From the NCBI GenBank assembly GCA_964639985.1, contig CAZXHG010000013.1, positions 1,597 to 65,596 of the forward strand: 64,000 bases of DNA, in the 5' to 3' direction. The notes beneath the pieces are model-generated. The model ran no database searches. It was not told the DNA's origin and saw nothing but the letters and a program-made list of their open reading frames with translations. The stretch is from an uncultured Rickettsiales bacterium (GTDB taxonomy: Bacteria; Myxococcota_A; UBA796; UBA9615; CAYRNR01). Below are positions 1 through 48,967 of this stretch, one piece after another (the first letter of the stretch is position 1; each line of letters begins with the position of its first letter). A program made the translations under genes and the position numbers.

Positions 1-749
1 GGGTCGATCACCACGACCTTCTGTCCGCCACGGCGGTGGCACTGCACCATGCGGCCGAACAGGGTCGGGTGTCTCTCCGCGGGATCCGCCCCCACGACCA
101 GCACGGCGCCCGCCTCATCCATGGCATCCAGTGGCTGGCTGGCCCCGAAGAATCCGAGCCCTCGCTCCGCAGCCACCACCCCGGCCATGGCGTCCAGCCG
201 CAGGTTGCTCTCCACGGTCGCGCAGCCCAGGAAGCCGCGCAGCAGCCGGTTGAACACGAGGTGGGTCTCGGTGGGCAGACCCACGTCGAGGAAGGTTGCC
301 AGTCCCGAGGGCTTCTTCTTCGCGATCGGTGCCACGTGCTCACCGAGCCAGGCCAGGGCCTGCTCCCACGTCACCGCCTCGAGTCCACCGGTCGAGCCCT
401 TGGTCGCGGGATCACGGCGGAGTAGCGGCTGGCTGACGCGGCGATCCGGGTCCAGTCCCGCCGGGAACGCCATGCCACGGGTGCACAGGCGGCCGTAGTT
501 CACCGGTGACACGGGATCGCCCTTGACGGTCACCGCTCGGCCTCTGCGCACCCCCACGAACAGGGGGTCGGCCATGCCGCACTGGCCGCAGATGCCGCGG
601 TACCAGTGCTCCAGACCAGCCCCGGGGGCATGCAGATCCTGGGACAGCGCCGGGCACAGCCAGCCCAGCGCGGTGCCGCCCAGAGCGGCACTGCAGCCGG
701 TGGCCGCGGCCGCCCTCAACACGTCTCGACGGGTCGGTGTGTTGCCCAT
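1..749 (-). CDS. Tat-exported molybdopterin (Mo/W-bisPGD) oxidoreductase catalytic subunit, NapA/NasA/Fdh-like; runs off the window edge
   Basis: Not in the ORF track; translated by hand from ATG 749: MGNTPTRRDVLRAAAATGC (twin-Arg signal), GICGQCGMAD...KGDPVSPVNYGRLCTRG (N-terminal Fe-S motif), EAVTWEQAL, SNLRLDAM, VLVVGADPAERHP, KVVVID. Starts 4 nt after the upstream stop. Confidence 0.85.
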   Translation of the reverse strand, partial: MGNTPTRRDVLRAAAATGCSAALGGTALGWLCPALSQDLHAPGAGLEHWYRGICGQCGMADPLFVGVRRGRAVTVKGDPVSPVNYGRLCTRGMAFPAGLDPDRRVSQPLLRRDPATKGSTGGLEAVTWEQALAWLGEHVAPIAKKKPSGLATFLDVGLPTETHLVFNRLLRGFLGCATVESNLRLDAMAGVVAAERGLGFFGASQPLDAMDEAGAVLVVGADPAERHPTLFGRMVQCHRRGGQKVVVID

Positions 750-753
750 GGCT

Positions 754-1629
754 CTACCTCCCCCCCGCCTTCCAGGTGGTCAGGATCGGATCCGAATGCT
801 GCAGCCGGTACTCGGAGATCGCGCGGGCATGACACTGCAAGCAGATCTCCACGAACGCCTCCCGTGAAGCCTCGTCCAGCCGGGTCTCGTCGCCCTTCAG
901 CCGCGTCAGCATCCCACTCACGTCGTGGTCCATCACCGTGTCGCAGCGCAGGTCGTTGGTGTGATCGTGTACGTCGGAGAGGCGTACGTGGCACATGTGG
1001 CAGTTGGCGGCCGCGGGCACGTCGTCGGCGTCGAACCCCTCGCGGGCGAAGATCGTGCCCATCTTGGACTGCGCGTAGGTCTGCACGTGTACCGAGTCGC
1101 GGTGGCACGAGTTGCAGGCCGAGGGTTGCTTGACCTCCTCGAGGTCGAACGCGTGGGCGCGGTGGCACGAGTCGCAGCGGATCCCGCTGTCCGGGGTGTC
1201 CGCATGCAGGCCCTTGCGCATGTCCTGCTCTTCCTGGGGGTGGCAGGCCCGACAGCGGTCCGGCCCGGGGTGCGGCACGAACCCGGCCTCGTGCGTGCCG
1301 TGGCACGCCTCGCAGCCGACGCCCACCAGCGCGTGCAGGCTCGTGGCCCAGTCCTCGGTGGCGAACGAGGTCTGGGACGTGGTGTGGCAGTTGAGGCACA
1401 GGCTGGCCACGTGACCGGCGTCCCTGCCCGCGTAGCGCTCACCCACACCCTGGCTGTAGGTGAAGTGGTTGGCGGGCAGCTCCATGTCCAGGAACTCCTG
1501 GCTCCGTCCAGGCGGCACGAGCAGGTCGTCCGGGGCCGGAGGCGGGGCCTCGGCGCGGGTGCACCCCCCGATCCCGACCAGGACGGCCACGATCCAGAGG
1601 GCACTCGAAATCGAAAGTGATTTCAGCAT
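754..1629 (-). CDS. Heptaheme cytochrome c lipoprotein, HAO/octaheme-family fold
   Basis: Seven CxxCH motifs (CLNCH, CEACH, CRACH, CDSCH, CNSCH, CHMCH, CLQCH); lipobox-like LVGIGGC; ATG 1629 preferred over the TTG at 1647. Confidence 0.9.
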   Translation of the reverse strand: MLKSLSISSALWIVAVLVGIGGCTRAEAPPPAPDDLLVPPGRSQEFLDMELPANHFTYSQGVGERYAGRDAGHVASLCLNCHTTSQTSFATEDWATSLHALVGVGCEACHGTHEAGFVPHPGPDRCRACHPQEEQDMRKGLHADTPDSGIRCDSCHRAHAFDLEEVKQPSACNSCHRDSVHVQTYAQSKMGTIFAREGFDADDVPAAANCHMCHVRLSDVHDHTNDLRCDTVMDHDVSGMLTRLKGDETRLDEASREAFVEICLQCHARAISEYRLQHSDPILTTWKAGGR

Positions 1630-1663
1630 CTTGTACCATCCCAACAAAAACGTTGGATTGCTC

Positions 1664-2857
1664 CTACATCACGTGTTCGTACGCCAGGTCCTTCACCCCG
1701 AAGGGATCGTGGCACTGCACGCACACGTTGCGCGTGGCCATCTGCTCGCGCAGCTGGGTGGACACCTCGTCCAGCAGCCGCTCGCCCTCGGACACGTCCC
1801 CGCTCGCCTGCAGCACCACGGCCGCGGCCATGGCCGCGGCGTAGTCCGCGCCCGGCCCGTGGCAGCCCTCGCAGGTCACGCCCTCCTGCAGCCAGGTGTC
1901 GGTGACCGGGTCGTACCCGGTGGTGTGGCACTCCAGGCAGGGGGTGTTGTCCTCCACCGCCTCGAGGCGGTCGAAGGAGGTGAACTTGGTGGCGCGCCAG
2001 CGCTCCACGTGGCGCCGCTGTCGCGCCTCGTGGCAGCGCAGGCAGGCACCGGAGCCCACGTAGGGCACTGGTCTGCCGGACGAATCGTAGCCCGTCGCGT
2101 CGAGGCCCGTCGGAAGCCGCGGACGCCAGTGGGTGGCGTTGGCCGCCCACCAGGTGCGCCAGCGCCCCACGGCCTCGGCTCGTTCGGCCGCGGGCGCGTG
2201 GTACGCGTACCCGAGGTCCCGGCCCGTCAGCCGGCGCAGGCTGGCCACGGCCGCAGCGCGCTCGGCCTTGTCCCGGTGGTCCAGGGCGTCGACCAGCGGC
2301 TCGAGGGTGACTGCCGGGCCGCGGGTCCAGGGGCGCAGCATCATGAAGCGGTGCGCCTCGTCCGAGCGCAGGGCGCGGCCGTTGCCCCCGTGGCAGACCG
2401 TACAACCCCAGCCCTGGTAGGGGCTCTGGGGCCCGAGGCCGGGGTGCGTGGCAGCGAGGTCGTCCATGCCCGGGTGGCAGGTCCCGCAGCGCTCCACAGT
2501 GCCGTCGGGCGTGATCTGCTCGTCGATCCCCCGGGGGCGCTGCTCCCAGCGGGCGAGCCTCGCCTCGGCATGGTCGAGGTCGGCGCGGTACGCGGCCAGG
2601 TGCCGCAGCTCCGCTTCCCCGGCGTCGGGGGAACTCGCGGCCTCCTCGGCGCGGCGGTAGTCCAGGGATCTCTGCACGTCGTCGAACGTCTGTTGCTCGG
2701 CGAGCAGCGAGGCCTGCGCCGCCCCGCGCTGCTCGGCCACTCGCTGTCGCTGCACGGCGCGGTGCTCGGGGAACACCACCCGCCAGCACAGGGCGACCGT
2801 CACGGCCAGCGCGGCCACGGCGGCGATCGCGAAAAGGCGGCTGGGATCGCGGGTCAC
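1664..2857 (-). CDS. Membrane-anchored hexaheme cytochrome c
   Basis: 3' part of track ORF 1664..3457. GTG 2857 with GGAGG upstream, directly after the upstream stop. N-terminal TM helix, six CxxCH (CGTCH, CTVCH, CLRCH, CLECH, CEGCH, CVQCH), C-terminal c554-like YVGSGAC domain. Confidence 0.9.
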   Translation of the reverse strand: MTRDPSRLFAIAAVAALAVTVALCWRVVFPEHRAVQRQRVAEQRGAAQASLLAEQQTFDDVQRSLDYRRAEEAASSPDAGEAELRHLAAYRADLDHAEARLARWEQRPRGIDEQITPDGTVERCGTCHPGMDDLAATHPGLGPQSPYQGWGCTVCHGGNGRALRSDEAHRFMMLRPWTRGPAVTLEPLVDALDHRDKAERAAAVASLRRLTGRDLGYAYHAPAAERAEAVGRWRTWWAANATHWRPRLPTGLDATGYDSSGRPVPYVGSGACLRCHEARQRRHVERWRATKFTSFDRLEAVEDNTPCLECHTTGYDPVTDTWLQEGVTCEGCHGPGADYAAAMAAAVVLQASGDVSEGERLLDEVSTQLREQMATRNVCVQCHDPFGVKDLAYEHVM

Positions 2858-2859
2858 GC

Positions 2860-3534
2860 TCAGTACACCCCCTCCAGCCAGGGCCACACCCAGGCCCAGC
2901 CCGGACCGCGGAACAGGGCGCCGACCAGGGACAGCAGTACGGCCTCCACTGCGATCCAGGCTCCGATCCAGTGCACCGCAGGCCAGCGGGCCAGTCGCGC
3001 CATCGGCCCACGCGGCCGCTGGATCAGGCCGGGTGCGACCGCGAGGGCGCCGAACAGCGCCGTGGGCACCAGCAGGAGCCAGGGCGCGTGGTCCGCGGTC
3101 AGCGTCATCAGCCCCAGCGCGATCACCAGGCCACCGGCCATCAGCGCGGCCCTCCGCGGTTCGTTCGCCTCCCCGGTCCACAGCGGCCGGTGGGTCAGGT
3201 CCGGGCGGGTGTAGGGCACGACCAACAGCAGCACCACCGCGGCCGCGGGCACGGCCACCCCCGAGATCACGGGCGGGTAATAGTGCAGCAGTTCCTGCAG
3301 GCCCACGAAGTACCACGGCGCCTTGCTCGGATCCGGGGTCACAGACGGGTCCGCGATCTCCAGCAGGGGAGCGTCGACCACCAGGGCCAGCACCGACAGC
3401 GCGGCCATCACCAGCAGCCCGGCCGCGCACTCCAGCAGGAAGAAGCGGGGGAACCACGGCACCGTGGGCCGCGGATCACGGTGTGGCCCGTCCGGCGCGA
3501 CGTCGTGCACGCGTTGTCCGCCCGGCGTGGTCAT
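2860..3534 (-). CDS. petD: Cytochrome b/b6 C-terminal subunit (subunit IV / PetD-like)
   Basis: WFPRFF, APL..IADP..TPDPSKAPWYFVGLQELL (PEWY-equivalent), several TM helices; adjacent to cytochrome b6. Confidence 0.9.
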   Translation of the reverse strand: MTTPGGQRVHDVAPDGPHRDPRPTVPWFPRFFLLECAAGLLVMAALSVLALVVDAPLLEIADPSVTPDPSKAPWYFVGLQELLHYYPPVISGVAVPAAAVVLLLVVPYTRPDLTHRPLWTGEANEPRRAALMAGGLVIALGLMTLTADHAPWLLLVPTALFGALAVAPGLIQRPRGPMARLARWPAVHWIGAWIAVEAVLLSLVGALFRGPGWAWVWPWLEGVY

Positions 3535-3538
3535 CGGT

Positions 3539-4273
3539 TCACAGGGGGCGGGTGACGCCCCCGTCCTTTCGTACGCGCCAGAAGTGAAGAGCCATCAGGC
3601 CGACCGTGGCCAGGGGCAGCACGATGCAGTGCAGCACGTAGAAGCGCAGCACGGCTGCGCCGCCCACCTCGTCGCCGCCGAGCAGGAGCCGGCGGAGGAA
3701 CTCGCCCACCAGGGGCACGGACGCCGCCATCTTCGTGCCCACGGACACGGCCCACAGGGCGAGCTGGTCCCAGGGCAGCAGGTAGCCGGTGTAGCTCAGC
3801 GCCAGGGTCAGCAGCAGCAGCGCCACCCCCACCACCCAGTTGAACTCCCGCGGCGGCCGGTAGGCCCGCGCCACGAACACCCGCACCATGTGCAGCAGCA
3901 CCGTGGCCACCATGCCGTGGGCCGCCCAGCGGTGCAGGTTGCGCATGAATGCGCCCGCGGGCACCGCGTACATCAGGTCCTCGATGTCGTGGTAGGCGTC
4001 GGGCACGGTGGGGCGGAACCACACCATCAGGTAGATGCCGGTCACGGTCAGCGCCACGAACAGCAGCGCGGACAGGCCGCCGAGGCAGAACGTGGTGGCG
4101 AAGCGGTAGTCCAGCGGGTGCACCTTCACCGGCCGGATGTGCAGCAGCACGCTGGACAGCACAAACCGGGCGCGGCCGGTGGGGGTGGACTCGTACGCCG
4201 TGCGCACGAACGAACGCCACGGACGCGATCGCGCCACACGCCCCAGCCAGCCCTCGCGCCGTGGCTCGCTCAT
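3539..4273 (-). CDS. petB: Cytochrome b6-type N-terminal subunit (PetB-like)
   Basis: [56 protein letters not shown]; FCLGG heme-ci cysteine; ATG 4273 overlaps the Rieske stop. Confidence 0.95.
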
Positions 4274-4701
4274 GCGGGCTCCCCGTCCGGATCGACCACC
4301 AGCCGGCCCTGGTCGTCCAGGCCCACGGCCACGGCCACCAGGTCTTCCCGCGCTGGACCGTTGAGCACGTGGCCGTCCGGCTCGAAGCGGCTGCCGTGGC
4401 AGGGACAGTGGAAGCGCTCCTCCTCCTCCAGCCACCGCACCACGCAGCCCAGGTGCGGGCAGACCGTGGACAGGGCGTAGAACCCGTCGGCGGTGCGGCC
4501 CACGGCCAGCTGGTCCGCGGGCAGCAGCAGCACGCCGTCCAGCGGGATGTCCTCTGGAAAGCCCGCCACCACCGCTGCGTCGGCGCGCGTCGACGGCCAG
4601 GGCGTGGCGAACCGCAGGGACACGAACGCCCCCAGGCCGCAGGTCGCGGCCAGCGCGGTCGCGCCCTGGCGCAGCAGTCGGCGACGGGTCGGGTCAGCCA
4701 C
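4270..4701 (-). CDS. petC: Rieske 2Fe-2S protein with Tat signal
   Basis: TRRRLLR signal; CPHLGC and CPCHGSRF boxes; GPA motif. Confidence 0.95.
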
Positions 4702-6172
4702 GGTGCGGCTCCTCGCCCAGCTGGTGGGCGGACAGGCACTCGGCCGGACACCGCTCGATGCACAGTCCGCAGCGCAGGCAGCGTGAGCCGTCCCAGTGCA
4801 GCCCGTCCAGCAGGCGCAGCGCGCTCACCGGGCAGCCGTTCACGCAGCGGCCACAGGCCAGGCAGGCGTCGGCGTGGGCGCGCGGACCGACCTGGGTCCA
4901 GCAGTCCAGGCAGCGCCGGCCCTCGGCCGATGGCTCGTCGAGACGAGGGGAGTGGGGTGGGTTGGGGTGGGACGGACCGCGCTCGAACCCGGGGCCGGGG
5001 CCCGGTACGTGGACCGCTCCTCCGGCGAGATCGCGGTCGATGTGGGAGGCCATGGAGTGGCCGTGGGCCACGGCCGCGATCACCGTTCCCGCGCCGGTGA
5101 GGTCGCCGCCGGCGATGCCCCCCGGCGGGGCCTCCAGGCCCGGCGTACGGCCGATGGCGACGACCACGCTGTCCACGGCCAGCCGAGTCCGGCTGGCTGG
5201 CCTCACGCGAGGGCGGTAGCTGCCGCGCGGGTCGTGGTACGTGGCCACCCGCGAGTGGATCACGGCGGTGACCCGATCGTCTCCGTCGATCGAGACGGGG
5301 ACCACGCCAGTGACCTGCCGGACGCCCTCGTCCCGGGCGGCCCGCGCCTCCTGCTGGCGGGCGCGGCCCTCGAGCGAGAGTCGGCGCACCAGCAGGGTCA
5401 CGTCGCGGCCCGTTCGGACCAGCGCGCGCGCGGCGTCGACGGCCGTGTCGCCCCCTCCGATCACGGCCACGTCGTGGCCGAGGCCGAGGTCATCGCCCGC
5501 CACGCCCGCGCGCAACACGTCGAGCCCGTCGTGCACGCCAGGGAGGTCGTGGCCCGGTACGTCGAGTGGCCGACCGCGGGGCAGTCCCGTGGCCACGGCC
5601 ACGCGCTCGAAGCCGTCGGCGAGCAGGTCATCGACCGAGTCCACCGGGGTGCTGCAGCGCAACTCGAACCCCGCGTCGAGCATGGCGCGGACGTCGGCCT
5701 CCAGCGCCTCGGTGGGCAGGCGGAACCGGGGGATGGCGTGGCGCGGCATGCCGCCGGGCTCGGCGTGGGCCTCGAACGCGGTCACGGCGTAGCCGAGCAG
5801 GGCCAGGTCGTAGGCAGCGGTCAGGCCGGCCGGTCCGGCTCCGACGATGGCCACGCGCCGTCCCTCTCCTCGGTCCAATCGGGGTGGCGTGGGAGGGGGC
5901 GTACCGCCCTCGACCGCGACGCGCTTGAGTCGCCGCAGGGCCAGGGGCTCGTCAACGGCCGAACGGGCGCAGGCATCCTCGCAGGGGTGGGTGCAGATGA
6001 AGGCGCAGGTCCGCACGAACGGGTTGCGCAGGGCGGCGAGGCGGAATGCCTCGTCCAGATCACCGCGGGCCACGGCGCGGGCGTAGAGCCCGGCCGGTGT
6101 GTGCACCGGACAGGCCCGTCGGCACCCGATCCCTTCCAGCAGCGGCAGCAGCAGCTCGGGCCGGCTCCCCAT
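4694..6172 (-). CDS. FAD/NAD(P)H-dependent oxidoreductase, GltD/NfnB/DsrL-like, with C-terminal 2x[4Fe-4S] ferredoxin domain
   Basis: CRRACPVH and CAFICTHPCEDAC Fe-S motifs, VAIVGAGPAG (FAD), VIGGGDTAVD (NAD(P)), CLACGRCVNGCP and CLRCGLCIERCP; AGGAG RBS before ATG 6172; no signal peptide. Confidence 0.9.
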   Translation of the reverse strand: MGSRPELLLPLLEGIGCRRACPVHTPAGLYARAVARGDLDEAFRLAALRNPFVRTCAFICTHPCEDACARSAVDEPLALRRLKRVAVEGGTPPPTPPRLDRGEGRRVAIVGAGPAGLTAAYDLALLGYAVTAFEAHAEPGGMPRHAIPRFRLPTEALEADVRAMLDAGFELRCSTPVDSVDDLLADGFERVAVATGLPRGRPLDVPGHDLPGVHDGLDVLRAGVAGDDLGLGHDVAVIGGGDTAVDAARALVRTGRDVTLLVRRLSLEGRARQQEARAARDEGVRQVTGVVPVSIDGDDRVTAVIHSRVATYHDPRGSYRPRVRPASRTRLAVDSVVVAIGRTPGLEAPPGGIAGGDLTGAGTVIAAVAHGHSMASHIDRDLAGGAVHVPGPGPGFERGPSHPNPPHSPRLDEPSAEGRRCLDCWTQVGPRAHADACLACGRCVNGCPVSALRLLDGLHWDGSRCLRCGLCIERCPAECLSAHQLGEEPHRG

Positions 6173-6268: not shown

Positions 6269-6637
6269 CTACTCCTCGGCGTCGACGCGGTCGAAGTGGT
6301 ACTGCAGGAAGGACTGGATCCTCGCCCCGGTGCCAGGGGAGATACCGGAGTTGGGCTTGCGGGACATGCGGGTCACGTAGCGGCTCCAGTCGTCGCCGCG
6401 GTACTCGGAGTTGATGGATCGGGCCAGGGTGTGGCACTTGCTGCACTTCTTGGCGTACAGCCGGTACAGCTCCTGCATGTCTTCGGGGTAGTCGCTGACG
6501 TCGATGGCGGCCGGGCCGAAGTCGGCGTCGAAGACCTTCTCGTCGCCGTCTTCCTCCTGCGCCAGGCCAGGCGTGGTCATCGCGCCCAGCACCACGATCG
6601 CGGTCACCGTCAGCAGCCATGCCAGCATCGTTCTCAT
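6269..6637 (-). CDS. Exported monoheme cytochrome c
   Basis: Signal peptide ending PGLA-Q; CSKCH; distal Met candidate in YVTRMSRK; GAGG 9 nt before ATG 6637. Confidence 0.85.
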   Translation of the reverse strand: MRTMLAWLLTVTAIVVLGAMTTPGLAQEEDGDEKVFDADFGPAAIDVSDYPEDMQELYRLYAKKCSKCHTLARSINSEYRGDDWSRYVTRMSRKPNSGISPGTGARIQSFLQYHFDRVDAEE

Positions 6638-6795
6638 CGCATCCATCCTCGTCGTGTGGGGTACGACGTGCGGGTGCGCCCGCGTATTCACAACCGCACC
6701 GCCGCGGACCATGGTGATCGGTTCGGCGGACGCCAGCAAGTGCAATTGCGCAGGGGAGTGGTTCGGGATAGCTTGTGGCCTTTCTGGAGGACGCC

Positions 6796-8916
6796 ATGGA
6801 ACCCACCCGGGAGATCATGTGGAACGTGCACTGGATGCGGTGGCCGATCTACGGCCCGGCGCTGATCGCGTTCGGCATCATGGCGTGGGGATTCTGGAAG
6901 GAGTATGGACGCCGCAGCGTGCTGTTCCGCGCTGCCCGGCCGGACGACGAGCGGCGCAAGGAACTCGGCCGGCGGATCTTCGACGCGCTGCGCTACCTGT
7001 TCGGCCACCAGCGGATCCTGCGTGAGACCTACCCCGGCGTGATGCACTGGCTGGTGTTCTTCGGCTTCTTCGTGCTGTTCGTGGTCACGCTGCTGGTGAT
7101 GGTGCAGGAGGACTTCACGGCCCTCTTCTTCGGCGTGGAGTTCCTGAAGGGCCCGACCTACCTGGTGTGGTCGCTCGCCGGCGACGTGTTCGGACTGGGA
7201 CTGCTGATCGGCGCGGGCATGGCGCTCGTGCGTCGCTACATCGCGCGGCCGAAGCGGCTGGACAGCCGGCCCATGGAGTTGTGGGCGCTGCTGCTGATCC
7301 TCGGGTTGCTGCTGACCGGGTTCTTCGCCGAGTCCCTGCGCATGGTCGGGGACGGCGAGGTGGGCGCGCCCTGGGCGCCGTGGTCGCCGGTGGGCTGGCT
7401 GGGCGCCCTGCTGCTGCGGGGCACGGGCATGGGCGAGGGCACGGTGCGGCTGTTGCACGCGGTGGACTGGCAGGTGCACATGGTGCTGGCGCTGGTGTTC
7501 GTGGCCACCATCCCGTGGTCGAAGTTCTGGCACATGGTGCCCGGCTTCGCCAACGTGGTGCTGCGCAACGAGGCGCCCAAGGGCGATCTGCCGACCCTGG
7601 ACATGGAGGATCTCGAGGACGAGACCCGCGAGACCTTCGGTATCCACCGGGTGGACGAGTTCACCTGGAAGGACCTGCTCGACACCGAGGCCTGCATGCG
7701 ATGTGGCCGCTGTACGGACGCTTGCCCGGCGTTCGCCACGGACAAGCCGCTGAACCCCAAGAAGATCATCCAGGATCTCAAGGCCAACGCCGACGAGAAG
7801 CTCGGCCTGTGGTTCGACGCCGCGGGCAACGTCAAGGAGGACGTGGACCGCGAGGCCGAGGGCACGACGCTGGTCCACGGCTCGGACGCGGGTGAGGACC
7901 TGCCCGCGGGCGCCATCGGGTTCGAGGAGCTGTTCGCCTGCACCAGCTGCCGCGCGTGCATGGAGGCGTGCCCGGTTCACATCGAGCACGTGCCCAAGAT
8001 CCTGTCCATGCGCCAGTACCTGACGCTGATGATGAGCGACTTCCCCAAGGAGGCGCAGGCCGTGATGCGCAACCTGGAGAACAACGGCAACCCCTGGGGC
8101 ATCGGCATGGCCCAACGCGGCGAGTGGGCCGAGGGCCTGGACGTGCCCACCTTCGAGGAGGCCCCGGACTCCGAGTACCTGCTGTTCCCGGGGTGCGCGG
8201 GCGCGTTCGACGACCGCAACCGCAAGGTGGCGCGGGCTACGGCCGAGTTGCTGAAGCGGGCAGGCGTCAGCGTCGCCACGCTGGGCGGCCAGGAGACCTG
8301 CTGCGGCGACCCGGCGCGGCGCATCGGCAACGAGTACCTGTTCGCCATGCAGGCCCAGATGAACATCGAGCTGTTCAACAGCTACGGCGTGAAGAAGATC
8401 GTCACCATCTGCCCCCACGGATTGACCGTGCTGGGCACGGAGTACCGCCGCCACGGCGGCGACTTCGAGGTGGTGCACCACGCCGAGCTGCTGGCGCAGC
8501 TGGTGGCCGAGGGCCGGCTGACGCCGGAGCGGACCCCGGACGGCGTCAAGAACGTGACGTACCACGACTCGTGCTACCTCGGTCGCTGGAACGACATCTA
8601 CGAGCCCCAGCGCGACATCCTGCGTGCGCTGCCCGGCGTGCACGGGGAGGAGATGCCGCGCCACGGCTCCACCAGCTTCTGCTGTGGCGCGGGCGGCGGA
8701 CGGCTGTGGATGGAGGAGAACCTCGGCACGCGGATCAACCACGACCGGGTGAACGAGGCGTTGGGCACGGGCGCGGACACCCTGGTCTCGGCCTGCCCCC
8801 ACTGCATGATCATGCTCGGCGACGGCGTGTCGGGCATGCAGAAGCAGGACGACCTGGCGCTGAAGGACGTGGCCGAGCTGCTGCTCGACGCCCTCGGCGA
8901 CCGCGGAGGGGAGTGA
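6796..8916 (+). CDS. Membrane-bound heterodisulfide-reductase-like Fe-S protein (NarI-like TM + 4Fe-4S dicluster + two CCG domains; FadF/HdrF type)
   Basis: TM helices with His residues; CMRCGRCTDACP and CTSCRACMEACP; ETCCG and FCCGAGGG; YHDSCYLGR; GGAGG before ATG 6796. Confidence 0.88.
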   Translation: MEPTREIMWNVHWMRWPIYGPALIAFGIMAWGFWKEYGRRSVLFRAARPDDERRKELGRRIFDALRYLFGHQRILRETYPGVMHWLVFFGFFVLFVVTLLVMVQEDFTALFFGVEFLKGPTYLVWSLAGDVFGLGLLIGAGMALVRRYIARPKRLDSRPMELWALLLILGLLLTGFFAESLRMVGDGEVGAPWAPWSPVGWLGALLLRGTGMGEGTVRLLHAVDWQVHMVLALVFVATIPWSKFWHMVPGFANVVLRNEAPKGDLPTLDMEDLEDETRETFGIHRVDEFTWKDLLDTEACMRCGRCTDACPAFATDKPLNPKKIIQDLKANADEKLGLWFDAAGNVKEDVDREAEGTTLVHGSDAGEDLPAGAIGFEELFACTSCRACMEACPVHIEHVPKILSMRQYLTLMMSDFPKEAQAVMRNLENNGNPWGIGMAQRGEWAEGLDVPTFEEAPDSEYLLFPGCAGAFDDRNRKVARATAELLKRAGVSVATLGGQETCCGDPARRIGNEYLFAMQAQMNIELFNSYGVKKIVTICPHGLTVLGTEYRRHGGDFEVVHHAELLAQLVAEGRLTPERTPDGVKNVTYHDSCYLGRWNDIYEPQRDILRALPGVHGEEMPRHGSTSFCCGAGGGRLWMEENLGTRINHDRVNEALGTGADTLVSACPHCMIMLGDGVSGMQKQDDLALKDVAELLLDALGDRGGE

Positions 8917-11858: not shown

Positions 11859-12533
11859 ATGGAGCTGTTCGACGTGCTGGGATACGGCGTGTGCCATCGT
11901 GAGCCGGCGCGCACCATGGCGGATGCATGGCTGTGCTATCGCTGCAGCGGGCTGTACGCCGGTGGCCTGCTGGGTGTTCTCGTCGCGGGGTGGTTCGACC
12001 GGCGCCTCGGCGTGGGCGTGCAGGTCATGGTCTGCGGCCTGCTGCTGGCTCCGATCGCCATCGACACCCAGTTCTTCGGCCGGGGCTCGCCCTTCGACGT
12101 GGGCTGGTGGCGGCTGGTCAGCGGTGCACTCGCGGGAGTTGGCAGCGGGCTGTTCTTCGGCGCCCGCGCGGTGCGGCGGGTGGCGTGGCCGTCCGCGGCG
12201 CGACCCCTCGTGGCCACGGCCGCGGTGTGGGGGCCGCTGCTGATCGCGCTGGCTGTGGTGTTGCGTGGGTTCGGCGTGGCCGCGGGCCTCGACCTGGCCG
12301 TGGGCGCCGGCCTGACCGCGCTGTGCTTCGCGGGTACGGCCTGGGGCCTGGCGGTGGCGCGCTGGCTCGTCAACCGGCTGACGTGGCTGCGGCTGGAGGT
12401 GCGGCCGTTCTCCTCGAACCTCCTGGCGGCCGTCGTGGTCGCCGAGCTGGTGGCCGTGTCGCTGATCCCCAACCAGTACAAGCCCAGCGGCCTGTGGCTG
12501 CGGCCGGTGCTGGAGCTGCTCGGGCTGCGATGA
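11859..12533 (+). CDS. DUF2085-like membrane protein
   Basis: GYGVCHREPART...LCYRCSGLYAG motif followed by multiple TM helices. Confidence 0.75.
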   Translation: MELFDVLGYGVCHREPARTMADAWLCYRCSGLYAGGLLGVLVAGWFDRRLGVGVQVMVCGLLLAPIAIDTQFFGRGSPFDVGWWRLVSGALAGVGSGLFFGARAVRRVAWPSAARPLVATAAVWGPLLIALAVVLRGFGVAAGLDLAVGAGLTALCFAGTAWGLAVARWLVNRLTWLRLEVRPFSSNLLAAVVVAELVAVSLIPNQYKPSGLWLRPVLELLGLR

Positions 12534-12571
12534 CGTCGCGGCCGCTCCACGCGCGCGCTACCATCGGACCG

Positions 12572-15118
12572 ATGACTCTCGCGCGGATCCCGTGGGCGTG
12601 GCTATCGATCGTGGCGTGTGCGCTGGCCTGGCCGGCCGCGGCCCATTTTCCCCACGATCCGATGGCCGAGATCGCCATCGACGCGAGCGGTGAGCGGATC
12701 GTGGCGCAGTACCTCTACCCCGGGCGACGGCTGGTGGTGGTCAGCGAGGATGCGGGCCGCACCTGGGCGTTCGTGGCCCCCGAGGCCGCGCGGGAGCAGC
12801 TCGACAGCCTGCAATTCGCCGGCGGCGAGTCCCTCGTCGCCGCGGACGCCATGGCGGCCCACCCCTGGGTGAGCCACGACGGCGGCTACCGCTGGGACGC
12901 GTTGTCCGAGCCGGACGGCGCGCCCGTGCACCACGTCGCGCCCGCCCCGGGCTACGACGAGCAACCCACCCTGTTCGCCGGCACGGAGCTCGGCGTGGCG
13001 CGCAGTGATGATGGTGGCGCCACGTGGACCACGCTGGCAGGCGCGCCGGGCGGTCCCGTGAGGAAGATCGCGGTGGCGCCTGGCTGGCCGGACGATCCAG
13101 TGGTGGTCACCGTGGGGGACGAGGGCGTGTGGTTCGGCGAGGACGGCGGGCTGGACTGGCGACTGGCCCTGGGGCCGTCGGAGCTCCCCGCCGTGGTGAC
13201 CCTGTCGCCGCGGTTCGCCGAAGACGACCGCCTGTGGATCGGCACCCGGGACGGCCTGCTGCTGCGCAGCGACGATCGCGGAGGGGAATGGACGACCGTG
13301 CGCCCCGAGCCGGAGTCCATCGGCGCTCTCGACGAGATGGTGCAGGACCTGCTGGCCCTGTCGGACCAGCGCCTGCTGGCGGTCACGGCCAGCTACGGGG
13401 TGCTGTGCAGCGACGACGCCGGGGATTCGTGGGCCATGTGCTCCGAGGGGCTGCCGGCGCGGACCAGCCAGTTCAGCAGCAGCTGGGGACACTATCGTCG
13501 GCTCGATCGGGCGGTGAGCTCGCCCGACGAGGTGGTGCTCGGGGCCTGGGAGGGGCTGGTCGCGAGCCAGGACGGCGGGGCCACGTGGGAGGAGCGCTGC
13601 GCGCTGCAGCCGACCTACGTGCGCTCGGTGGGGTTCTCGCCGGCCTATCCCGACGATCCGAGCCTCTGGGTGGGTTCGTACGGCGCGGGGGTGTACGTGA
13701 CTCGCGACGGCGGGCTCGGCTGGACCGTGCTCGACGGGCTGCCCTACGCCCTGCACACCGAGGCCGTGGCCGTGAGCCCGGCCTGGCCGCACGATCCGCG
13801 CATGTTCGTCATCGGCTCCCGCCGGCTGCTGGTGTCGGCGGACGGGGGCCTGGGGTTCGCCGTTCAGGAGTTCCCGGACGTGCAGCTGATGCACCAGGTG
13901 GTGCTCGCCCCGGACTTCGACCTGGGGGGCCCGGTGATGGCCACGGGCACGACCGACGACGAGGGGCACTGGGGGGTGGTGCGCAGCGACGACGGCGGCG
14001 TGAGCTGGGAGCAGGTGTGGCTGGCGGCCGAGCCCCCCGCGCCCCAGATCACCCGGATCGCCTTCTCGGCGGTCGCGGCGGACGTGCTGTACGGAGCCCA
14101 GCGGGAACCCGCGGCCGTGGTGATATCCCGGGACGGCGGCCGGAGCTGGACGGAGCTGCAGGCCGTGGAGGGCGACGACGAGCCCGCGGCCCTGGAGGTG
14201 CTGGCAGTGGATGGCGCCGACCGCGTCGTCGCGCTGATGCCCGGAGGCCAGGTCTGGCTCGGAGGCGCCGACGCGGGGTCGTTCGACCTCGTGACCGACC
14301 TGGGCGCCGCCGTGATCTGGGGTGGGGTCGGGGGGACGGGCTCGGATGTGCTCCTCGCCTCGCTGGATCCACCGGCCCTGGTGCGGTCCCTGGACCGGGG
14401 CGAGAGCTGGCAGCTGCTCGAGGTGCCCTTCGGGTCGGTGGTGCTGGCTGCGGCGGTGCCGCCGGACCATCCGGACGACCCCACGGTGGTGGCATCCACC
14501 CACTACGGCACCTTCGTCTCCTGTGACGGGGGGAGCGCGTGGCAGCTGCTGGATCGCATGGTGCGCTGGGAGCACGGCGCGTGTGACCTGCGCTACCCGG
14601 CGATCGAGCCCGACCTGCTGCTTGGCCCGGGCACCGGCGGCGCGGCCGCCGTGATGCGCAGCGCGAGCGACGCGGTCGAGGTCGCGTTCCACGGCCGCGC
14701 GGTGCGCTGGCTGTCCTGGCGGGGCCCGGCGTGGGGCGCGGCGGACGTGTGGCTCGACGGCGAGGTGGTGGCCCACGTCGACCTGGCCGCGGATGTGGCC
14801 AGCGGTCCCGTGGTGGTGTTCGAGGAGGATCTCGGCGAGGACGGTGAGCATCAGCTGCGGGTGGAGGTGACCGACGCGCGTGGCGGCGTGGTGGTGGATG
14901 CGATCGAGGTGGAGCGCGACGCCGTCGACAACGGCCCGGACGAGCACTACGAGAGCATGGACTGGTGCGTGGACCTGCCGGCGTGGGAGGAGCCCACGCC
15001 GATCGGCGGCGGGTGCTGTGCTTCGGGGGACGGCGGCGCGCCCGAGGTGCAGGTGGGCGCGATGATCGTGCTGTTGGGGGTGGTCTGGGGCCGCCGGCGA
15101 TCCGGGGCGGGAGGGTAG
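12572..15118 (+). CDS. Surface protein with BNR/Asp-box beta-propeller repeats, jelly-roll domain and MYXO-CTERM-like anchor
   Basis: Signal peptide ending AAA-H; more than 10 S-x-D-G-G-x-x-W repeats; C-terminus GGGCC + hydrophobic helix + RRR. Alternative start at ATG 12530. Confidence 0.85.
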   Translation: MTLARIPWAWLSIVACALAWPAAAHFPHDPMAEIAIDASGERIVAQYLYPGRRLVVVSEDAGRTWAFVAPEAAREQLDSLQFAGGESLVAADAMAAHPWVSHDGGYRWDALSEPDGAPVHHVAPAPGYDEQPTLFAGTELGVARSDDGGATWTTLAGAPGGPVRKIAVAPGWPDDPVVVTVGDEGVWFGEDGGLDWRLALGPSELPAVVTLSPRFAEDDRLWIGTRDGLLLRSDDRGGEWTTVRPEPESIGALDEMVQDLLALSDQRLLAVTASYGVLCSDDAGDSWAMCSEGLPARTSQFSSSWGHYRRLDRAVSSPDEVVLGAWEGLVASQDGGATWEERCALQPTYVRSVGFSPAYPDDPSLWVGSYGAGVYVTRDGGLGWTVLDGLPYALHTEAVAVSPAWPHDPRMFVIGSRRLLVSADGGLGFAVQEFPDVQLMHQVVLAPDFDLGGPVMATGTTDDEGHWGVVRSDDGGVSWEQVWLAAEPPAPQITRIAFSAVAADVLYGAQREPAAVVISRDGGRSWTELQAVEGDDEPAALEVLAVDGADRVVALMPGGQVWLGGADAGSFDLVTDLGAAVIWGGVGGTGSDVLLASLDPPALVRSLDRGESWQLLEVPFGSVVLAAAVPPDHPDDPTVVASTHYGTFVSCDGGSAWQLLDRMVRWEHGACDLRYPAIEPDLLLGPGTGGAAAVMRSASDAVEVAFHGRAVRWLSWRGPAWGAADVWLDGEVVAHVDLAADVASGPVVVFEEDLGEDGEHQLRVEVTDARGGVVVDAIEVERDAVDNGPDEHYESMDWCVDLPAWEEPTPIGGGCCASGDGGAPEVQVGAMIVLLGVVWGRRRSGAGG

Positions 15119-20151: not shown

Positions 20152-22908
20152 TCAATCGCTCAGGGTGAACGCGAGGTACTCCCCGGGGGGGATCTGGAAG
20201 CGCCGCTGCAATGACTCGGCGTCGGCGGTCCAGGCCGCCTCGCCCGCGGCCTCGGCCGAGAATTCCAGCGAGCCCACCATGGTGGAGGACAGGACCCCGG
20301 TGTTGGACAGCACCAGCGCCCAGCTGCGGGTGCGGGGCAGCTCCACGGACAGCTCCCCGGTGGCCGCGTCCAGCAGCGACGTCTGGGCCTCGAACGGCTC
20401 GCCGTCCTTGAACAGGTCGTAGTTGGCCGCGTCCACCACGAACGCGTCGAGGTGGCCGCCCTCCTGCTCGAGGGACAGCTTGCCGGAGTAGGAACCGTCC
20501 GCCTCGATGCGGTGGCCCTCCACGTCGAAGGCGAGCTGCCAGCGCGCGTCCAGCGGCTCACCGTCGGTGAGGTCGGCTTCGGCCAGGTCCAGGTCCGCGG
20601 GCATGGCCCCGCCGATCGCCTGGGTCAGCAGGTAGGTCTCGTAGGGCTCGCTCATCTCCACGCCCTGATACAGGGAGTCCCCGCCGGGTTCGTTGCCGAT
20701 GGGCGACGCGACCGAGTACCCATAGGGGTTGTACTCCCCCACCGTGGACGAGGCGAACCCGTCGATGTCCGTGATCAGCTCCGCAGCCCAGGTCCACGCG
20801 TCCGGGTAGCCGTACACCGCCCACGTGCCATAGACGGTGACCACGGCGCCGTCCACGGGGCGGCCGTCCTCGTCGGTCACCTCGAACTCCAGGTAGGACG
20901 GGAGGGTCACGTACTCGTCGGTCATGGTCGTGCTGATGTAGGTGTCGCCGCGGCCGCCCGTCATGGCGTACAGGCGGTTGGTGGACAGGCCCGGGTCGGA
21001 GGCGTCGGGGTGGCGACCCGCGTCGAGGTCGTCGCAGTCGCCCGTCTCGAGGGTCCAGCCGTCGCCGTCCCGGTCGTGGCCGCGCAGCCCCTCGTCGGCC
21101 TGGCCGTCGCAGTTGTCGTCGATGCCGTTGGGCAGCTCGACCGCGTCGGGGTTCACGTCCGGGTTGGTGTCGTCGCAGTCGTGGAAGATGATCTCCACGC
21201 CGTCGCCGTCGTTGTCCTCCATGGACGTGCCGCTGTCGGCGTCGCCATCGCAGTCGTCGTCGACCAGGTTGTCCACCTCGGTGGCGCCGGGGTGGATCGT
21301 GTCCACCCAGTCGTTGCAGTCCCCGTCGGCGATGGTGTAGCCGTCCCCGTCCCTGTCCAGGTACGGGTCGAGGAAGCCCTCGTCGGCGGTGCCGTCGCAG
21401 TTGTCGTCCACTGCATTGCCGGTTTCGGCCGCGTCCGGGTGGCGGGCCGCGTCGTTGTCGTCGCAGTCACCGCCGGCGATGGTGTAGCCATCCCCGTCCG
21501 CGTCGGCCTCGTCGAGCCCGTCGTCGGCCGTTCCGTCGCAGTCGTCGTCCAGACCGTTGGTCGCCTCGGTGGCGCCCGGGTACACCGCGGCGTCCGTGTC
21601 GTCGCAGTCACCCGCGGACAGGGCCACGCCGTCACCGTCCGCGTCCAGGTCGGCCTCGGACATGCCCGGGTCGGCCACGCCGTCGCAGTCGTCGTCGTAG
21701 CCGTTGTGCAGCTCGGGAGCGCCCGGGTAGACGTCCGCGTCGTTGTCGTCGCAGTCGAAGGTGGCGGGTGAGTACCCGTCGCCGTCCACGTCGTCGGTGT
21801 CCAGCGCGTCGTCGGCGATGCCGTCGCAGTCGTCGTCCTCGCCGTCGCGGCTGATCCCGCCCTTGTAGTAGTTGAAGTAGTCCACGTGGGTCCCGATGGG
21901 CTCCCAGGCGACCCAGCGGTCGTCCCAGAACTCGTCCCAGGTGTGGTCGTTGGAGCGCGCGCCCACGTTGCGACAGGGGATCAGGGCGGTGCGCGCGGCG
22001 GCCGAGGTCAGGTCCGCGTGCTCGCCGCAGTTGCCGGCCCCCACCGTGTAGATGCGCACCGGCTGGATCGGCCGCTCGTCGCCCGCGCCGAAGTCGATGG
22101 TGTCCCAGACGAACTGGATGATCTCGCCGATGGCGCCGTTGTCCGTGCGGGTCTCGGCCTTGCTGTTCCACACCGTGTCGATGCCGTCGAAGTAGTCGGC
22201 CAGCAGGTAGCAGGTGTGGTCTCCGGGGCACTCGTCCGCGGCCGCGTCCCAGAGGAACTCGCGCCAGAACCAGCCGTTGTCCGGGCTCGTGCCGCTGGCG
22301 TTGACCCAGCCGTCGATGAACAGCGGGTACTCGTCCTCCAGGCGTGGGTGGACCACGTACCAGTAGTAGATGTCGCGGTCGATGGTCTTGTCCTCGACGG
22401 TGCCGTCCTCGTACCCGATGCGGTACGTGGCGGTCGTGTAGTAGTCTGGATCGATCCCCGGTTCACCCACGTCCTCGAGCTGCACGAAGTCCAGCAGCGG
22501 ATCGTAGGCATAGATCAGCTCGGCGTTCACGGTCAGCAGCTCGGGGTAGAACGTGTGGTACTCCAGCACCGAGCGGGACGTGTGGGCGATGGCGAATGCG
22601 ATCTCGTCGATCAGGTACACGTCCTCCGCGTCCACGATCAGCATGGCCAGGTCGTCCTGGTCCTCGTCGTTGAGCCGGTCGAAGGCGATGGCCAGATCGT
22701 CGGTCAGCCAGGTCGGCACCAGCTCGAGCGCCTCGTACGCCAGCTCGGTGAGGCCCAGGGGTTCGTGCACCACCTCCAGCAGGGGCGGGTCGACCGGGTC
22801 GCTGACCTCGGCGGTGGTGTCGTCGTCGTCGTCGATGTCCTCGGTGGTGGGGCAGGCGACGAGGGTGAGGGCGAACAGGCTACAGGCCAGGGCCAGCAGG
22901 TGTCTCAT
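20152..22908 (-). CDS. Lipoprotein with a transglutaminase-like core and MopE-type metal-binding repeats
   Basis: LTLVAC lipobox, poly-Asp linker, GNCGEHA...DHTWDEFW...WVAWEP, tandem DGDG..DCDD...PGA.E..NG.DDDCDG repeats; GGAG RBS before ATG 22908. Confidence 0.85.
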   Translation of the reverse strand: MRHLLALACSLFALTLVACPTTEDIDDDDDTTAEVSDPVDPPLLEVVHEPLGLTELAYEALELVPTWLTDDLAIAFDRLNDEDQDDLAMLIVDAEDVYLIDEIAFAIAHTSRSVLEYHTFYPELLTVNAELIYAYDPLLDFVQLEDVGEPGIDPDYYTTATYRIGYEDGTVEDKTIDRDIYYWYVVHPRLEDEYPLFIDGWVNASGTSPDNGWFWREFLWDAAADECPGDHTCYLLADYFDGIDTVWNSKAETRTDNGAIGEIIQFVWDTIDFGAGDERPIQPVRIYTVGAGNCGEHADLTSAAARTALIPCRNVGARSNDHTWDEFWDDRWVAWEPIGTHVDYFNYYKGGISRDGEDDDCDGIADDALDTDDVDGDGYSPATFDCDDNDADVYPGAPELHNGYDDDCDGVADPGMSEADLDADGDGVALSAGDCDDTDAAVYPGATEATNGLDDDCDGTADDGLDEADADGDGYTIAGGDCDDNDAARHPDAAETGNAVDDNCDGTADEGFLDPYLDRDGDGYTIADGDCNDWVDTIHPGATEVDNLVDDDCDGDADSGTSMEDNDGDGVEIIFHDCDDTNPDVNPDAVELPNGIDDNCDGQADEGLRGHDRDGDGWTLETGDCDDLDAGRHPDASDPGLSTNRLYAMTGGRGDTYISTTMTDEYVTLPSYLEFEVTDEDGRPVDGAVVTVYGTWAVYGYPDAWTWAAELITDIDGFASSTVGEYNPYGYSVASPIGNEPGGDSLYQGVEMSEPYETYLLTQAIGGAMPADLDLAEADLTDGEPLDARWQLAFDVEGHRIEADGSYSGKLSLEQEGGHLDAFVVDAANYDLFKDGEPFEAQTSLLDAATGELSVELPRTRSWALVLSNTGVLSSTMVGSLEFSAEAAGEAAWTADAESLQRRFQIPPGEYLAFTLSD
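20995..21850 (-). repeat. In-frame tandem coding repeats (six full plus two half units of about 45 aa)
   Basis: Recurring gccgtcgcagtcgtcgtc-type DNA corresponds to the DCDD/DDDCDG protein repeats. Confidence 0.85.
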
Positions 22909-23012
22909 GGCGGATCTCCGGTGGGTGCGTGGACATTGTCGCACGGAGGGGGCCGGGACTGGAGGGAAAGCCGAACGCTGCGGCCCATGCTGGAACATGG
23001 GCCCCGAGGGGA

Positions 23013-48450: not shown

Positions 48451-48526
48451 TGGCAGGCGAGGAAGGACTCGAACCTCCAGCCAACGGTTTTGGAGACCGC
48501 TGCTCTACCATTGGAGCTACTCGCCC
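48451..48526 (-). tRNA. trnW: tRNA-Trp (CCA)
   Basis: Cloverleaf; anticodon loop CT-CCA-AA; G73; encoded CCA end. Confidence 0.95.
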
Positions 48527-48535
48527 GCGATGAGC

Positions 48536-48620
48536 TGGTGGGTCAGGCAGGAATCGAACCTGCAAGCCAGCGGCGGCGGATCTACAGTCCGCTGGGCTCA
48601 CCACACTGCCCAACTGACCC
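48536..48620 (-). tRNA. trnY: tRNA-Tyr (GTA)
   Basis: Loop CT-GTA-GA; variable arm; encoded CCA. Confidence 0.92.
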
Positions 48621-48635
48621 ACGAAAAGGTGAAAC

Positions 48636-48715
48636 TGGTGGGGACGGTCCGGTTCGAACGGACGACCTCCTGGGCCACGACCAGGCGCTCTGACCAGAGA
48701 CTGAGCTACGTCCCC
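48636..48715 (-). tRNA. trnH: tRNA-His (GTG), atypical (C33, A73, no G-1)
   Basis: Loop TC-GTG-GC; acceptor GGGGACG/CGTCCCC; enlarged D-loop; encoded CCA. Confidence 0.8.
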
Positions 48716-48716
48716 G

Positions 48717-48791
48717 TGGCGACTCCCCGGAGATTCGAACTCCGAACCACGCGGTTAACAGCCGCGCGCTCAGCCGTTGAGCTAGGGAGTC
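48717..48791 (-). tRNA. trnN: tRNA-Asn (GTT)
   Basis: Loop CT-GTT-AA; G73; encoded CCA. Confidence 0.93.
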
Positions 48792-48797
48792 ATTTCC

Positions 48798-48874: not shown

Positions 48875-48879
48875 ACGTG

Positions 48880-48954: not shown

Positions 48955-48967
48955 TCGGGTACCTTCC

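Follow-up and report, generated by a model that had tools for sequence, protein, structure and literature searches.

A Rieske/cytochrome b6 operon with an NAD(P)H-type flavoprotein, multihaem cytochromes and a Nap/Fdh-like molybdoenzyme: a candidate respiratory supercomplex related to those of anammox bacteria

The 64,000 nt stretch of contig CAZXHG010000013.1 (assembly GCA_964639985.1; G+C 70%) analyzed here, called the window below, carries at its left end a compact cluster of eight genes that combines a Rieske/cytochrome b6 core with an Fe-S flavoprotein of the NAD(P)H-binding type, three c-type cytochromes and a molybdoenzyme that bears a twin-arginine translocation (Tat) signal. Several of its subunits resemble those of the NAD(P)-linked Rieske/cytochrome b complexes of the anammox bacterium Kuenenia stuttgartiensis (Kuste4569-4574 and Kustd1480-1485; Hauser et al. 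2025, 10.1101/2025.06.25.661457; PMC12954380), and the molybdoenzyme lies in an isolated clade that is neither NapA nor formate dehydrogenase. The products may well form one respiratory supercomplex in which quinol is oxidized and the electrons part, one branch running to the molybdoenzyme and the other to NAD(P)+, a reading whose chances we judge to be about even. The genes are listed below in the direction of transcription; their coordinates were taken from the list of open reading frames and from translation at the window edge, and they agree with the gene calls on identical public contigs.

6269..6637, minus strand: monohaem cytochrome c, 122 aa (called at 4993-5361 on L001, an identical contig; one CxxCH)
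4694..6172, minus strand: Fe-S flavoprotein, 492 aa (PF14691, PF07992, PF00070 and Fer4 families)
4270..4701, minus strand: Rieske [2Fe-2S] protein, 143 aa (PF00355, E 6.9e-12)
3539..4273, minus strand: cytochrome b6-type subunit, 244 aa (PF00033, E 1.7e-41; NCBIfam ExtP, 269.6 bits, cut-off 290)
2860..3534, minus strand: subunit IV-like membrane protein, 224 aa (PF00032, weak; NCBIfam ExtQ, 55.3 bits, cut-off 150)
1664..2857, minus strand: hexahaem cytochrome c, 397 aa (6 CxxCH, one N-terminal transmembrane helix)
754..1629, minus strand: heptahaem cytochrome c, 291 aa (7 CxxCH, signal peptide)
1..749, minus strand: N-terminal third (249 codons) of a Tat-signal molybdoenzyme of the bis(molybdopterin guanine dinucleotide) (bis-MGD) type, open at the window edge (TIGR01409, PF04879, PF00384)

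Pfam and NCBIfam searches agree with all of these assignments. An earlier note on this DNA, made from the letters alone, had described seven co-directional genes in the order flavoprotein, Rieske protein, cytochrome b6, subunit IV, hexahaem cytochrome, heptahaem cytochrome and molybdoenzyme, separated by no more than 34 nt; the coordinates bear this out, with spacings of -8, -4, +4, +2, +34 and +4 nt from the flavoprotein to the molybdoenzyme gene (the flavoprotein stop overlapping the Rieske start by 8 nt), and the CxxCH motifs give the 6 + 7, or 13, haems that it had counted. Its seven-gene operon was, however, one gene short: it had missed the monohaem cytochrome c gene, which lies 96 nt upstream of the flavoprotein gene on the same strand. 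A scan of the operon for sigma-70 promoters found no match, and a scan for terminators inside it found a single match, which is at chance level, and none above chance. The tight spacing and lack of an internal terminator favour one transcription unit.

The earlier note had only the beginning of the molybdoenzyme. The heptahaem protein is present on seven public metagenome contigs, and these supply the rest; the complete enzyme is 748 aa long (L001:10881-13127). All such contigs end ~100 nt past the molybdoenzyme gene, where there is a 14-bp G+C-rich hairpin. In relatives, a convergent 5S rRNA gene and the 3' end of a 23S rRNA gene lie directly downstream of the molybdoenzyme gene (L007 18738-19248; L009 18049-18165). 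The assembly breaks after this gene because the end of a convergent rRNA operon sits there, and the hairpin and the convergent rRNA genes together indicate that the molybdoenzyme gene is the last of the unit.

All eight genes are found in the same order in six of six diverged relatives (L007, L009 and L011-L014), so the co-conservation on which the earlier note had made its reading depend does exist. Identities to the window proteins in these relatives are 71-81% for the cytochrome b, 66-78% for the heptahaem cytochrome, 47-55% for the molybdoenzyme and 45-51% for the flavoprotein. The genes that flank the operon are partly syntenic, which makes the relatives members of one lineage, and the retention of every gene in spite of such divergence indicates selection on the gene set.

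In the flavoprotein, an N-terminal Fe-S domain (Fer4_20) is followed by Rossmann motifs for FAD (GAGPAGL) and for NAD(P)H (GGGDTAVD ... VRR, the latter at a strand end), and a ferredoxin domain with 2x[4Fe-4S] makes up the C-terminus; the Fe-S, FAD and NAD(P)H motifs are invariant in an alignment of 14 sequences of the family. Neither a hydrophobic or transmembrane segment (Kyte-Doolittle scan) nor a signal peptide was found in it, and it is predicted to be cytoplasmic. In a comparison of the family profile with the PDB, the top match is NfnABC of Caldicellulosiruptor (9bov/9bp5, 312 bits), and further matches are 9n5u ("NfnA"), 8oh5_C and the NfnB-type proteins 4ylf_B and 5jca_L. The bifurcating flavoproteins of the NfnABC/Stn/NfnB type score 312-241 bits here, whereas GltD and dihydropyrimidine dehydrogenase reach only ~170 bits; by score, then, the protein does not group with the latter two, the kinship that the earlier note had raised as the alternative. 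Near the flavoprotein gene no GltB, NfnA or PyrD-type partner is encoded. A protein search with the flavoprotein recovered ~15 clusters at 45-53% identity, followed by a steep fall to 37%. A profile scan of the genome collection gave 80 loci, four of which are species representatives of its own lineage, and no Rieske/b, cytochrome or Mo genes lie near the remaining 76 (Dehalococcoidia, Pelotomaculum, Bathyarchaeia-like and others). The flavoprotein gene is directly upstream of the Rieske gene, and frequently overlaps it, in 11 of 11 loci across several phyla.

The Rieske protein has a twin-arginine N-terminus (TRRRLL) and the cluster boxes CPHLGC and CPCHGSRF, the second of which has the Ser/Phe pattern and is kept in the relatives. 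Among all PDB chains it comes closest to the two Kuenenia proteins Kustd1480/Kuste4569, solved as 9rk4 (E 1.3e-18) and 9rk3 (E 4e-17), and the Rieske proteins of b6f complexes rank next, at E 1.6e-14 and weaker. Kustd1480 shares the Ser/Phe box II, with Ser as the hydrogen-bond donor. The cytochrome b6 aligns with its spinach and cyanobacterial counterparts over residues 61-243, and both His pairs, the four haem ligands, match. The cysteine that holds haem cN is also present, as Cys63 (in FCLGG) aligns with b6 Cys35; among the 120 closest homologues in the clade residue 63 is Cys in 53, Tyr in 55 and Phe in 10, and of the five flavoprotein-linked loci sampled in other phyla, four have Tyr at this position. 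The protein has an N-terminal extension of ~30 aa with the motif LLHIRPVKV, and His45 is kept in 119 of the 120 closest clade members. Subunit IV has five hydrophobic segments (Kyte-Doolittle) and reads APWY where PEWY is expected; PWY is thus kept but the acidic residue is replaced, and APWY is conserved in the relatives.

The c-type cytochromes differ in how far they can be followed. The monohaem protein, with one CSKCH motif, a hydrophobic N-terminal signal or transmembrane segment and a weak Pfam match to Cytochrome_CBB3 that lies below the cut-off, is encoded just upstream of the flavoprotein gene in all six relatives named above, at 60-70% identity. In the hexahaem cytochrome, residues 119-169, which hold the first two haems, are homologous to the N-terminal part of 7-8-haem cytochromes encoded at the equivalent place in the loci L091-L093, L096 and L097 of other phyla, and the homology is limited to this region. 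The signal peptide of the heptahaem cytochrome ends in a lipobox-like IGGC, and its NCBIfam match to hydrazine dehydrogenase is partial and amounts to only 22 bits. Seven-haem homologues of it directly precede genes of distant members of the molybdoenzyme clade at L095 (E 5e-21) and L094 (a fragment), and heptahaem homology makes up the N-terminal part of a third distant member, P0366 (E 2e-39). Three intermediate relatives of the molybdoenzyme are thus preceded by, or fused to, a heptahaem homologue, and this arrangement beside distant members of the clade marks the heptahaem cytochrome as a dedicated partner of these molybdoenzymes. P0366 itself is 1117 aa long and has a Tat-like MDRRTF between its heptahaem-like and molybdoenzyme parts; it could be a true fusion or an artefact of read-through or gene calling.

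The molybdoenzyme carries a Tat motif (TRRDVL; TIGR01409, 20.2 bits, above the cut-off), a signal conserved throughout the family, and the domains PF04879, PF00384 and, at the C-terminus, PF01568. A word-indexed protein search with it found 19 clusters at 46-100% identity and then none above 31%, where the next matches are assimilatory nitrate reductases. The gap around the clade held up in an exhaustive profile search across 1.84 billion representatives, which also yielded a few intermediate relatives (P0365, P0366, P0367 and P0369) at 440-560 bits (~32% identity). The closest relatives with solved structures are the monomeric NapA of D. desulfuricans (profile E 1.6e-92) and FdhH/FdhF, and the AlphaFold2 model of the molybdoenzyme (mean pLDDT 74.5) gives Foldseek TM scores of 0.73-0.77 to 2jio/2v3v and 0.72 to 1fdi. 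It belongs, by its sequence and predicted fold, to the Nap/Nas/Fdh branch of the bis-MGD dimethyl sulfoxide (DMSO) reductase superfamily.

Residue equivalences were read from ungapped profile alignments to NapA, FdhF and FdhH for 15 members of the family. The Fe-S motif has the form C-x2-C-x3-D...C, the third cysteine being replaced by Asp61 in 15 of 15 members, and the Mo-ligand position (Cys140/Sec140) is Asp186 in 13 of the 15. FdhH His141, FdhH Arg333 and NapA Arg354 are absent: Asp-Ala aligns with Sec/Cys140-His141, Leu368 with FdhH Arg333 and a Leu with NapA Arg354. On the other hand, the motifs of the MGD domain are kept (GADPAE.H, DPRRT, PGTD, HH..RE.TG and PEHFGF), with a mean column identity of 66%. 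Of the intermediate relatives, P0369 and P0366 share the Asp at the Mo-ligand position and P0367 has Ser; P0365 has a NapA-like Cys there and is followed by a NapD-like gene. A canonical NapA is rejected, as the scores with the two NapA models, 138 and 122 bits, fall far short of the cut-offs (904 and 931) and the defining residues are gone; a formate dehydrogenase of the FdhH/FdhF type is rejected likewise (TIGR01591, 210 bits against a cut-off of 666; Sec/Cys140, His141 and Arg333 gone). The enzyme appears to stand for an isolated and uncharacterised Nap/Fdh-like clade that is neither of the two. Our working guess is that its substrate is an oxyanion, with nitrate as the first candidate, because the enzyme is of Nap-like descent, has an Asp ligand as in enzymes of the Nar type and would need to serve as a high-potential sink. 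A clade-specific C-terminal motif, SDLEGGTDGR(G/A)EPES (residues ~687-706 of the L001 protein, in a region of low model confidence), recurs in the distant relatives P0365, P0367 and P0369; it may be a docking site for the heptahaem cytochrome.

The core of the operon also occurs outside this lineage. Relatives of the cytochrome b at 55-63% identity number in the hundreds there, and the named ones are labelled as metagenome-assembled genomes (MAGs) of Latescibacteria, Planctomycetota, Acidobacteria and Deltaproteobacteria. The gene neighbourhoods of five of them were sampled (L091, L092, L093, L096 and L097), and all five have the core in the same order: flavoprotein (606-649 aa), Rieske protein, cytochrome b, subunit IV (231-248 aa) and a transmembrane-anchored multihaem cytochrome with 7-8 haems. 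Full-length identity to the window proteins is 31-35% for the flavoprotein, 38-43% for the Rieske protein, 57-62% for the cytochrome b and 38-42% for subunit IV. The periplasmic module varies, with MtrB/PioB-type porins and multihaem cytochromes in L091 and L093, and in L097 (Planctomycetes MAG GCA_016209535.1, 9136-10249) a Tat-signal molybdoenzyme of type II (NarG/Ebd-like) directly after the core cytochrome, the contig ending inside the gene. This type-II enzyme and the Nap-like enzyme of the window come from different branches of the superfamily, so a molybdoenzyme must have joined the core at least two times. Judged from these loci, the flavoprotein-bearing Rieske/b6 core is widespread and modular rather than rare.

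How such a machine might work can be outlined from these parts. We infer its physical assembly, the direction of electron flow, the bifurcation and the substrate from the gene content and order, their conservation, the cofactor motifs, the topology and the homology to the Kuenenia-type complexes. The topology fits a supercomplex: the flavoprotein lacks a signal or transmembrane segment, the Rieske protein and the molybdoenzyme have Tat motifs, and the cytochromes have a transmembrane anchor or signal peptides. The core would consist of the Rieske protein, cytochrome b6 with haem cN and the five-helix subunit IV. On the periplasmic side, electrons would pass from the Rieske protein to the hexahaem cytochrome, then to the heptahaem lipoprotein, possibly with the help of the monohaem cytochrome, and finally to the Tat-exported molybdoenzyme, which would act as terminal reductase of a high-potential substrate. 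On the cytoplasmic side, the flavoprotein would dock on the face formed by b6 and subunit IV, where its four Fe-S clusters would connect it to haem bN/cN; a further haem, ligated by His45 of the two cytochrome b copies, would probably bridge the b haems to it. Quinol would be oxidized at the Qp site. One of its electrons would take the downhill branch to the Mo enzyme, by way of the Rieske protein and 13 haems, and the second would be pushed through bP, bN (with cN or the His45 haem) and the Fe-S chain to FAD, where it would reduce NAD(P)+. The outcome would be NAD(P)H made from quinol without reverse operation of complex I. For the Kuenenia complexes, a quinol bifurcation that reduces NAD(P)+ has been proposed (Kartal et al. 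2013; PMC12954380), and a high-potential Rieske protein of the Ser type was read by Hauser et al. as the signature of an over-driven bifurcation (PMC12954380). The Ser-type Rieske box is the sole sequence feature of the operon that bears on the direction of flow.

Several points weigh against this bifurcating supercomplex. The reduction of NAD(P)+ by the Kuenenia complexes is itself a proposal, backed by redox potentials and AlphaFold3 models only (PMC12954380). The N-terminal His45 was compared with Kuste4571 His43 from the published description, and the equivalence of the two is presumed. In a neighbour-joining tree, only 56 of 100 bootstraps join the flavoprotein family to its Rieske/b-linked counterparts from other phyla, and by raw score the flavoprotein is equally similar to unlinked flavoproteins of the Dehalococcoidia type. 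In the molybdoenzyme family two of the 15 members have Ala or Gly in place of Asp at the Mo-ligand position, and the AlphaFold2 model is of low confidence in residues 1-102, the Fe-S domain.

The same parts could also be used in the opposite sense, with NAD(P)H as the donor and electrons running through FAD and the Fe-S clusters to haem bN/cN and on to quinone at the Qn site, much like the proposal for FNR on b6f, or through the b haems, after which the Q-cycle would feed the haem wire and the Mo enzyme; the whole would then be a fused NAD(P)H dehydrogenase and complex III. Architecture and topology fit this equally well. NfnB/GltD-type enzymes are reversible, the reaction would be exergonic with any acceptor above ~-100 mV and would need no special potentials, and the haem cN cysteine is kept in the lineage itself, which suggests a working n-side site. 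However, this cysteine is missing from roughly half of the cytochrome b clade, four of the five sampled flavoprotein-linked loci among them, which argues against a conserved role for Qn, and box II of the Rieske protein carries the Ser that marks high-potential clusters; Kustd1480 carries it too, and its midpoint potential (Em) was measured at +335 mV (PMC12954380). We regard the reverse direction, the main rival, as rather unlikely, though it deserves to be kept in mind. A different possibility concerns the molybdoprotein, which might be a dehydrogenase through which electrons enter, or a cofactor-less scaffold like QrcB or ActB, instead of a terminal reductase. The canonical residues are all gone (NapA Cys140 and Arg354; FdhH Sec140, His141 and Arg333), the third Fe-S cysteine is replaced in every member, and the two Ala/Gly members and the low-confidence N-terminal 102 residues of the model would be in keeping with such a role. 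Yet the conserved Tat signal implies that the protein is folded and has its cofactor loaded when it is exported, the motifs of the MGD domain persist at their mean column identity of 66%, and the Fdh/Nas/Nap models match at E 5e-62 to 3e-40 as opposed to E 9e-19 for QrcB. Rieske/b complexes, moreover, normally donate electrons to periplasmic partners, and running them in reverse needs a proton-motive force. A QrcB/ActB-like pseudo-enzyme is accordingly rejected on the far better Fdh/Nas/Nap scores and on the retained MGD motifs and Tat signal, and an input or scaffold role as a whole seems improbable.

It might finally be argued that the flavoprotein is a stand-alone cytoplasmic enzyme of the GltD, SudA or dihydropyrimidine dehydrogenase (DPD) kind that is merely co-transcribed with an ordinary multihaem Rieske/b6 complex. 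It has no transmembrane segment or obvious anchor, it is the most divergent subunit (45-51% compared with 71-81% for the cytochrome b), and the tree support for a common origin with the other Rieske/b-linked flavoproteins is weak. This is nevertheless very hard to reconcile with a flavoprotein gene that adjoins the Rieske gene in 11 of 11 loci from several phyla, with the lack of an encoded GltB, NfnA or PyrD partner nearby, and with the invariant extra His that faces the cytoplasm in the cytochrome b clade; in Kuenenia, all subunits of the complexes have been reported to co-migrate (PMC12954380). We consider a stand-alone flavoprotein most improbable.

Only for the slow-growing anammox bacteria has it so far been asked whether NAD(P)+, rather than quinone again, can receive the low-potential electron of a Rieske/b complex, and the present locus, with the five relatives from other phyla, offers many more systems in which the NAD(P)+ idea could be tested. 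In this light the NAD(P)-linked complexes of anammox bacteria appear as one case of a widespread modular design, and anaerobes that receive their electrons at the quinone level might quite generally make NAD(P)H in this way; the substrate of the molybdoenzyme, in turn, could add a new respiratory reaction to the environments of the sampled metagenomes. More broadly, and with a good deal of doubt, the flavoprotein-Rieske/b6 machines of these phyla might all bifurcate quinol to NAD(P)H and be driven by any high-potential periplasmic sink, the sinks seen so far being an HAO-like haem protein, porin-cytochrome conduits, a type-II Mo enzyme and the new Asp-ligated Nap-like Mo enzyme. The lineage of the window would in that case carry a respiratory oxyanion reductase, not known before, that is coupled to the synthesis of NAD(P)H.

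Several other genes of the window deserve mention. Divergent to the operon, at 6775-8916 on the plus strand, lies the gene of a 713-aa HdrD/DsrMK-like membrane Fe-S protein, in which a NarI-like haem b domain is fused to a ferredoxin domain with two clusters and to a pair of CCG domains; it is rejected as a member of the operon's system, as it adjoins the operon in only three of seven loci (in the window, L007 and L014 and not in L009 or L011-L013). A gene at 11927-15118 (plus strand) encodes a 1063-aa BNR/Ycf48-like repeat protein, homologues of which flank the operon in relatives; its C-terminus, with GGGCCASGDGG..., a hydrophobic stretch and RRRS, resembles a signal of the MYXO-CTERM type, although a hidden Markov model search gave no match to one. 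A 1015-aa protein with four putative metal-binding motifs of the MopE type and a transglutaminase-like core is encoded at 20152-23199 (minus strand), and a VKOR-DsbA/thioredoxin fusion, a quinone-linked system for disulfide-bond formation, at 26659-27960 (minus strand). Finally, 11 tRNA genes are packed into ~1.07 kb at 48451-49518 (minus strand), namely Asp, Met, Lys, Leu, Gly, Cys, Ile, Asn, one at 48639-48715 that was found by Rfam only, Tyr and Trp.

The individual modules of the operon can each be set beside a known system. The flavoprotein aligns with the NfnB/NfnABC/GltD family over profile positions 17-519, which cover the Fe-S, FAD, NAD(P)H and two-cluster ferredoxin domains; it differs from that family in having no NfnA, HydB-like or GltB partner and in the placement of its gene in a Rieske/b6 operon, and it would exchange electrons with a membrane haem, not with a ferredoxin or a second flavin. 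NapA of D. desulfuricans (2nap/2jio) is the best match of the molybdoenzyme in sequence and fold, and the two have in common Tat export and a cytochrome c partner in place of an Fe-S subunit. The identity is only 24%, however, the Mo ligand and the third Fe-S Cys are both changed to Asp, Arg354 is gone, and no NapB, NapC, NapD, NapG or NapH is encoded here. Caldithrix abyssi offers an earlier example: its nap cluster holds Rieske/cytochrome b genes, though no flavoprotein gene, and the Rieske/b complex has been proposed as the electron source of the periplasmic Nap (PMC5317091).

The Ext/Cbc6 system of Geobacter sulfurreducens comprises the Rieske protein ExtO, the cytochrome b ExtP, the membrane protein ExtQ and the multihaem cytochromes ExtM/N/S (PMC5877670). 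Its cytochrome b6 is of the same clade as that of the window, and here too a Rieske/b6 core is wired to multihaem cytochromes. On the other hand, it has no flavoprotein, ExtQ is only 16.8 kDa, and the partners are a porin and cytochromes and not a molybdoenzyme. The operon is rejected as an equivalog of Ext, since its proteins score 269.6 bits against 290 for ExtP and 55.3 bits against 150 for ExtQ.

The closest likeness is to the Kuenenia complexes, in which a b6-like cytochrome b and a five-helix subunit IV are combined with a putative NAD(P) oxidoreductase and a cytochrome of six or eight haems, one of them having in addition an HAO-like octahaem protein, Kuste4574 (PMC12954380). Models of them place an extra haem b between His43 (or His62) of two cytochrome b copies, and the best structural homologue of Kuste4570 is 9bp5 (PMC12954380). 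The window operon has the same split b6-type cytochrome b, the same five-segment subunit IV, a transmembrane-anchored multihaem cytochrome c that replaces cytochrome f, and an NfnABC-like flavoprotein encoded in the operon, whose top match is 9bov/9bp5, 9bp5 being also that of Kuste4570. Its Rieske protein belongs to the Kuenenia subfamily (9rk4/9rk3 as top matches) and has the box II Ser/Phe of Kustd1480. The comparison was made by sequence for the Rieske protein only, the homology of the other subunits being indirect; the relation to Kuenenia that the earlier note had suspected is nevertheless upheld by the Rieske matches, the NfnABC-like flavoprotein and the five-segment subunit IV.

The differences from Kuenenia are equally clear. 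Where Kuenenia has the HAO-like octahaem protein, this operon has the heptahaem cytochrome of 291 aa and the Tat molybdoenzyme, in accord with the exchange of the HAO haem subunit for a molybdoenzyme that the earlier note had put forward. The flavoprotein gene comes first here and after the Rieske gene in Kuenenia, and an extra small monohaem cytochrome c is present. The host is of 70% G+C, and the 64-kb window contains no anammox genes; the earlier note had thought that it looked non-planctomycete, a view for which the one taxonomic hint is a set of weak domain matches of the Myxococcota/Bdellovibrio type. The GenBank label "uncultured Rickettsiales bacterium", which the four genome representatives of the lineage bear, fits poorly with a G+C of 70% and was given no weight. 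A literature search found no published account of the architecture with a molybdoenzyme, a possibility that the note had raised, although the coverage of the search was incomplete and absence from it is not proof. As far as sequence can tell, the reading given in that note is supported, and this kind of complex, biochemically uncharacterised in anammox bacteria though known from them, appears to have a variant in the operon described here.

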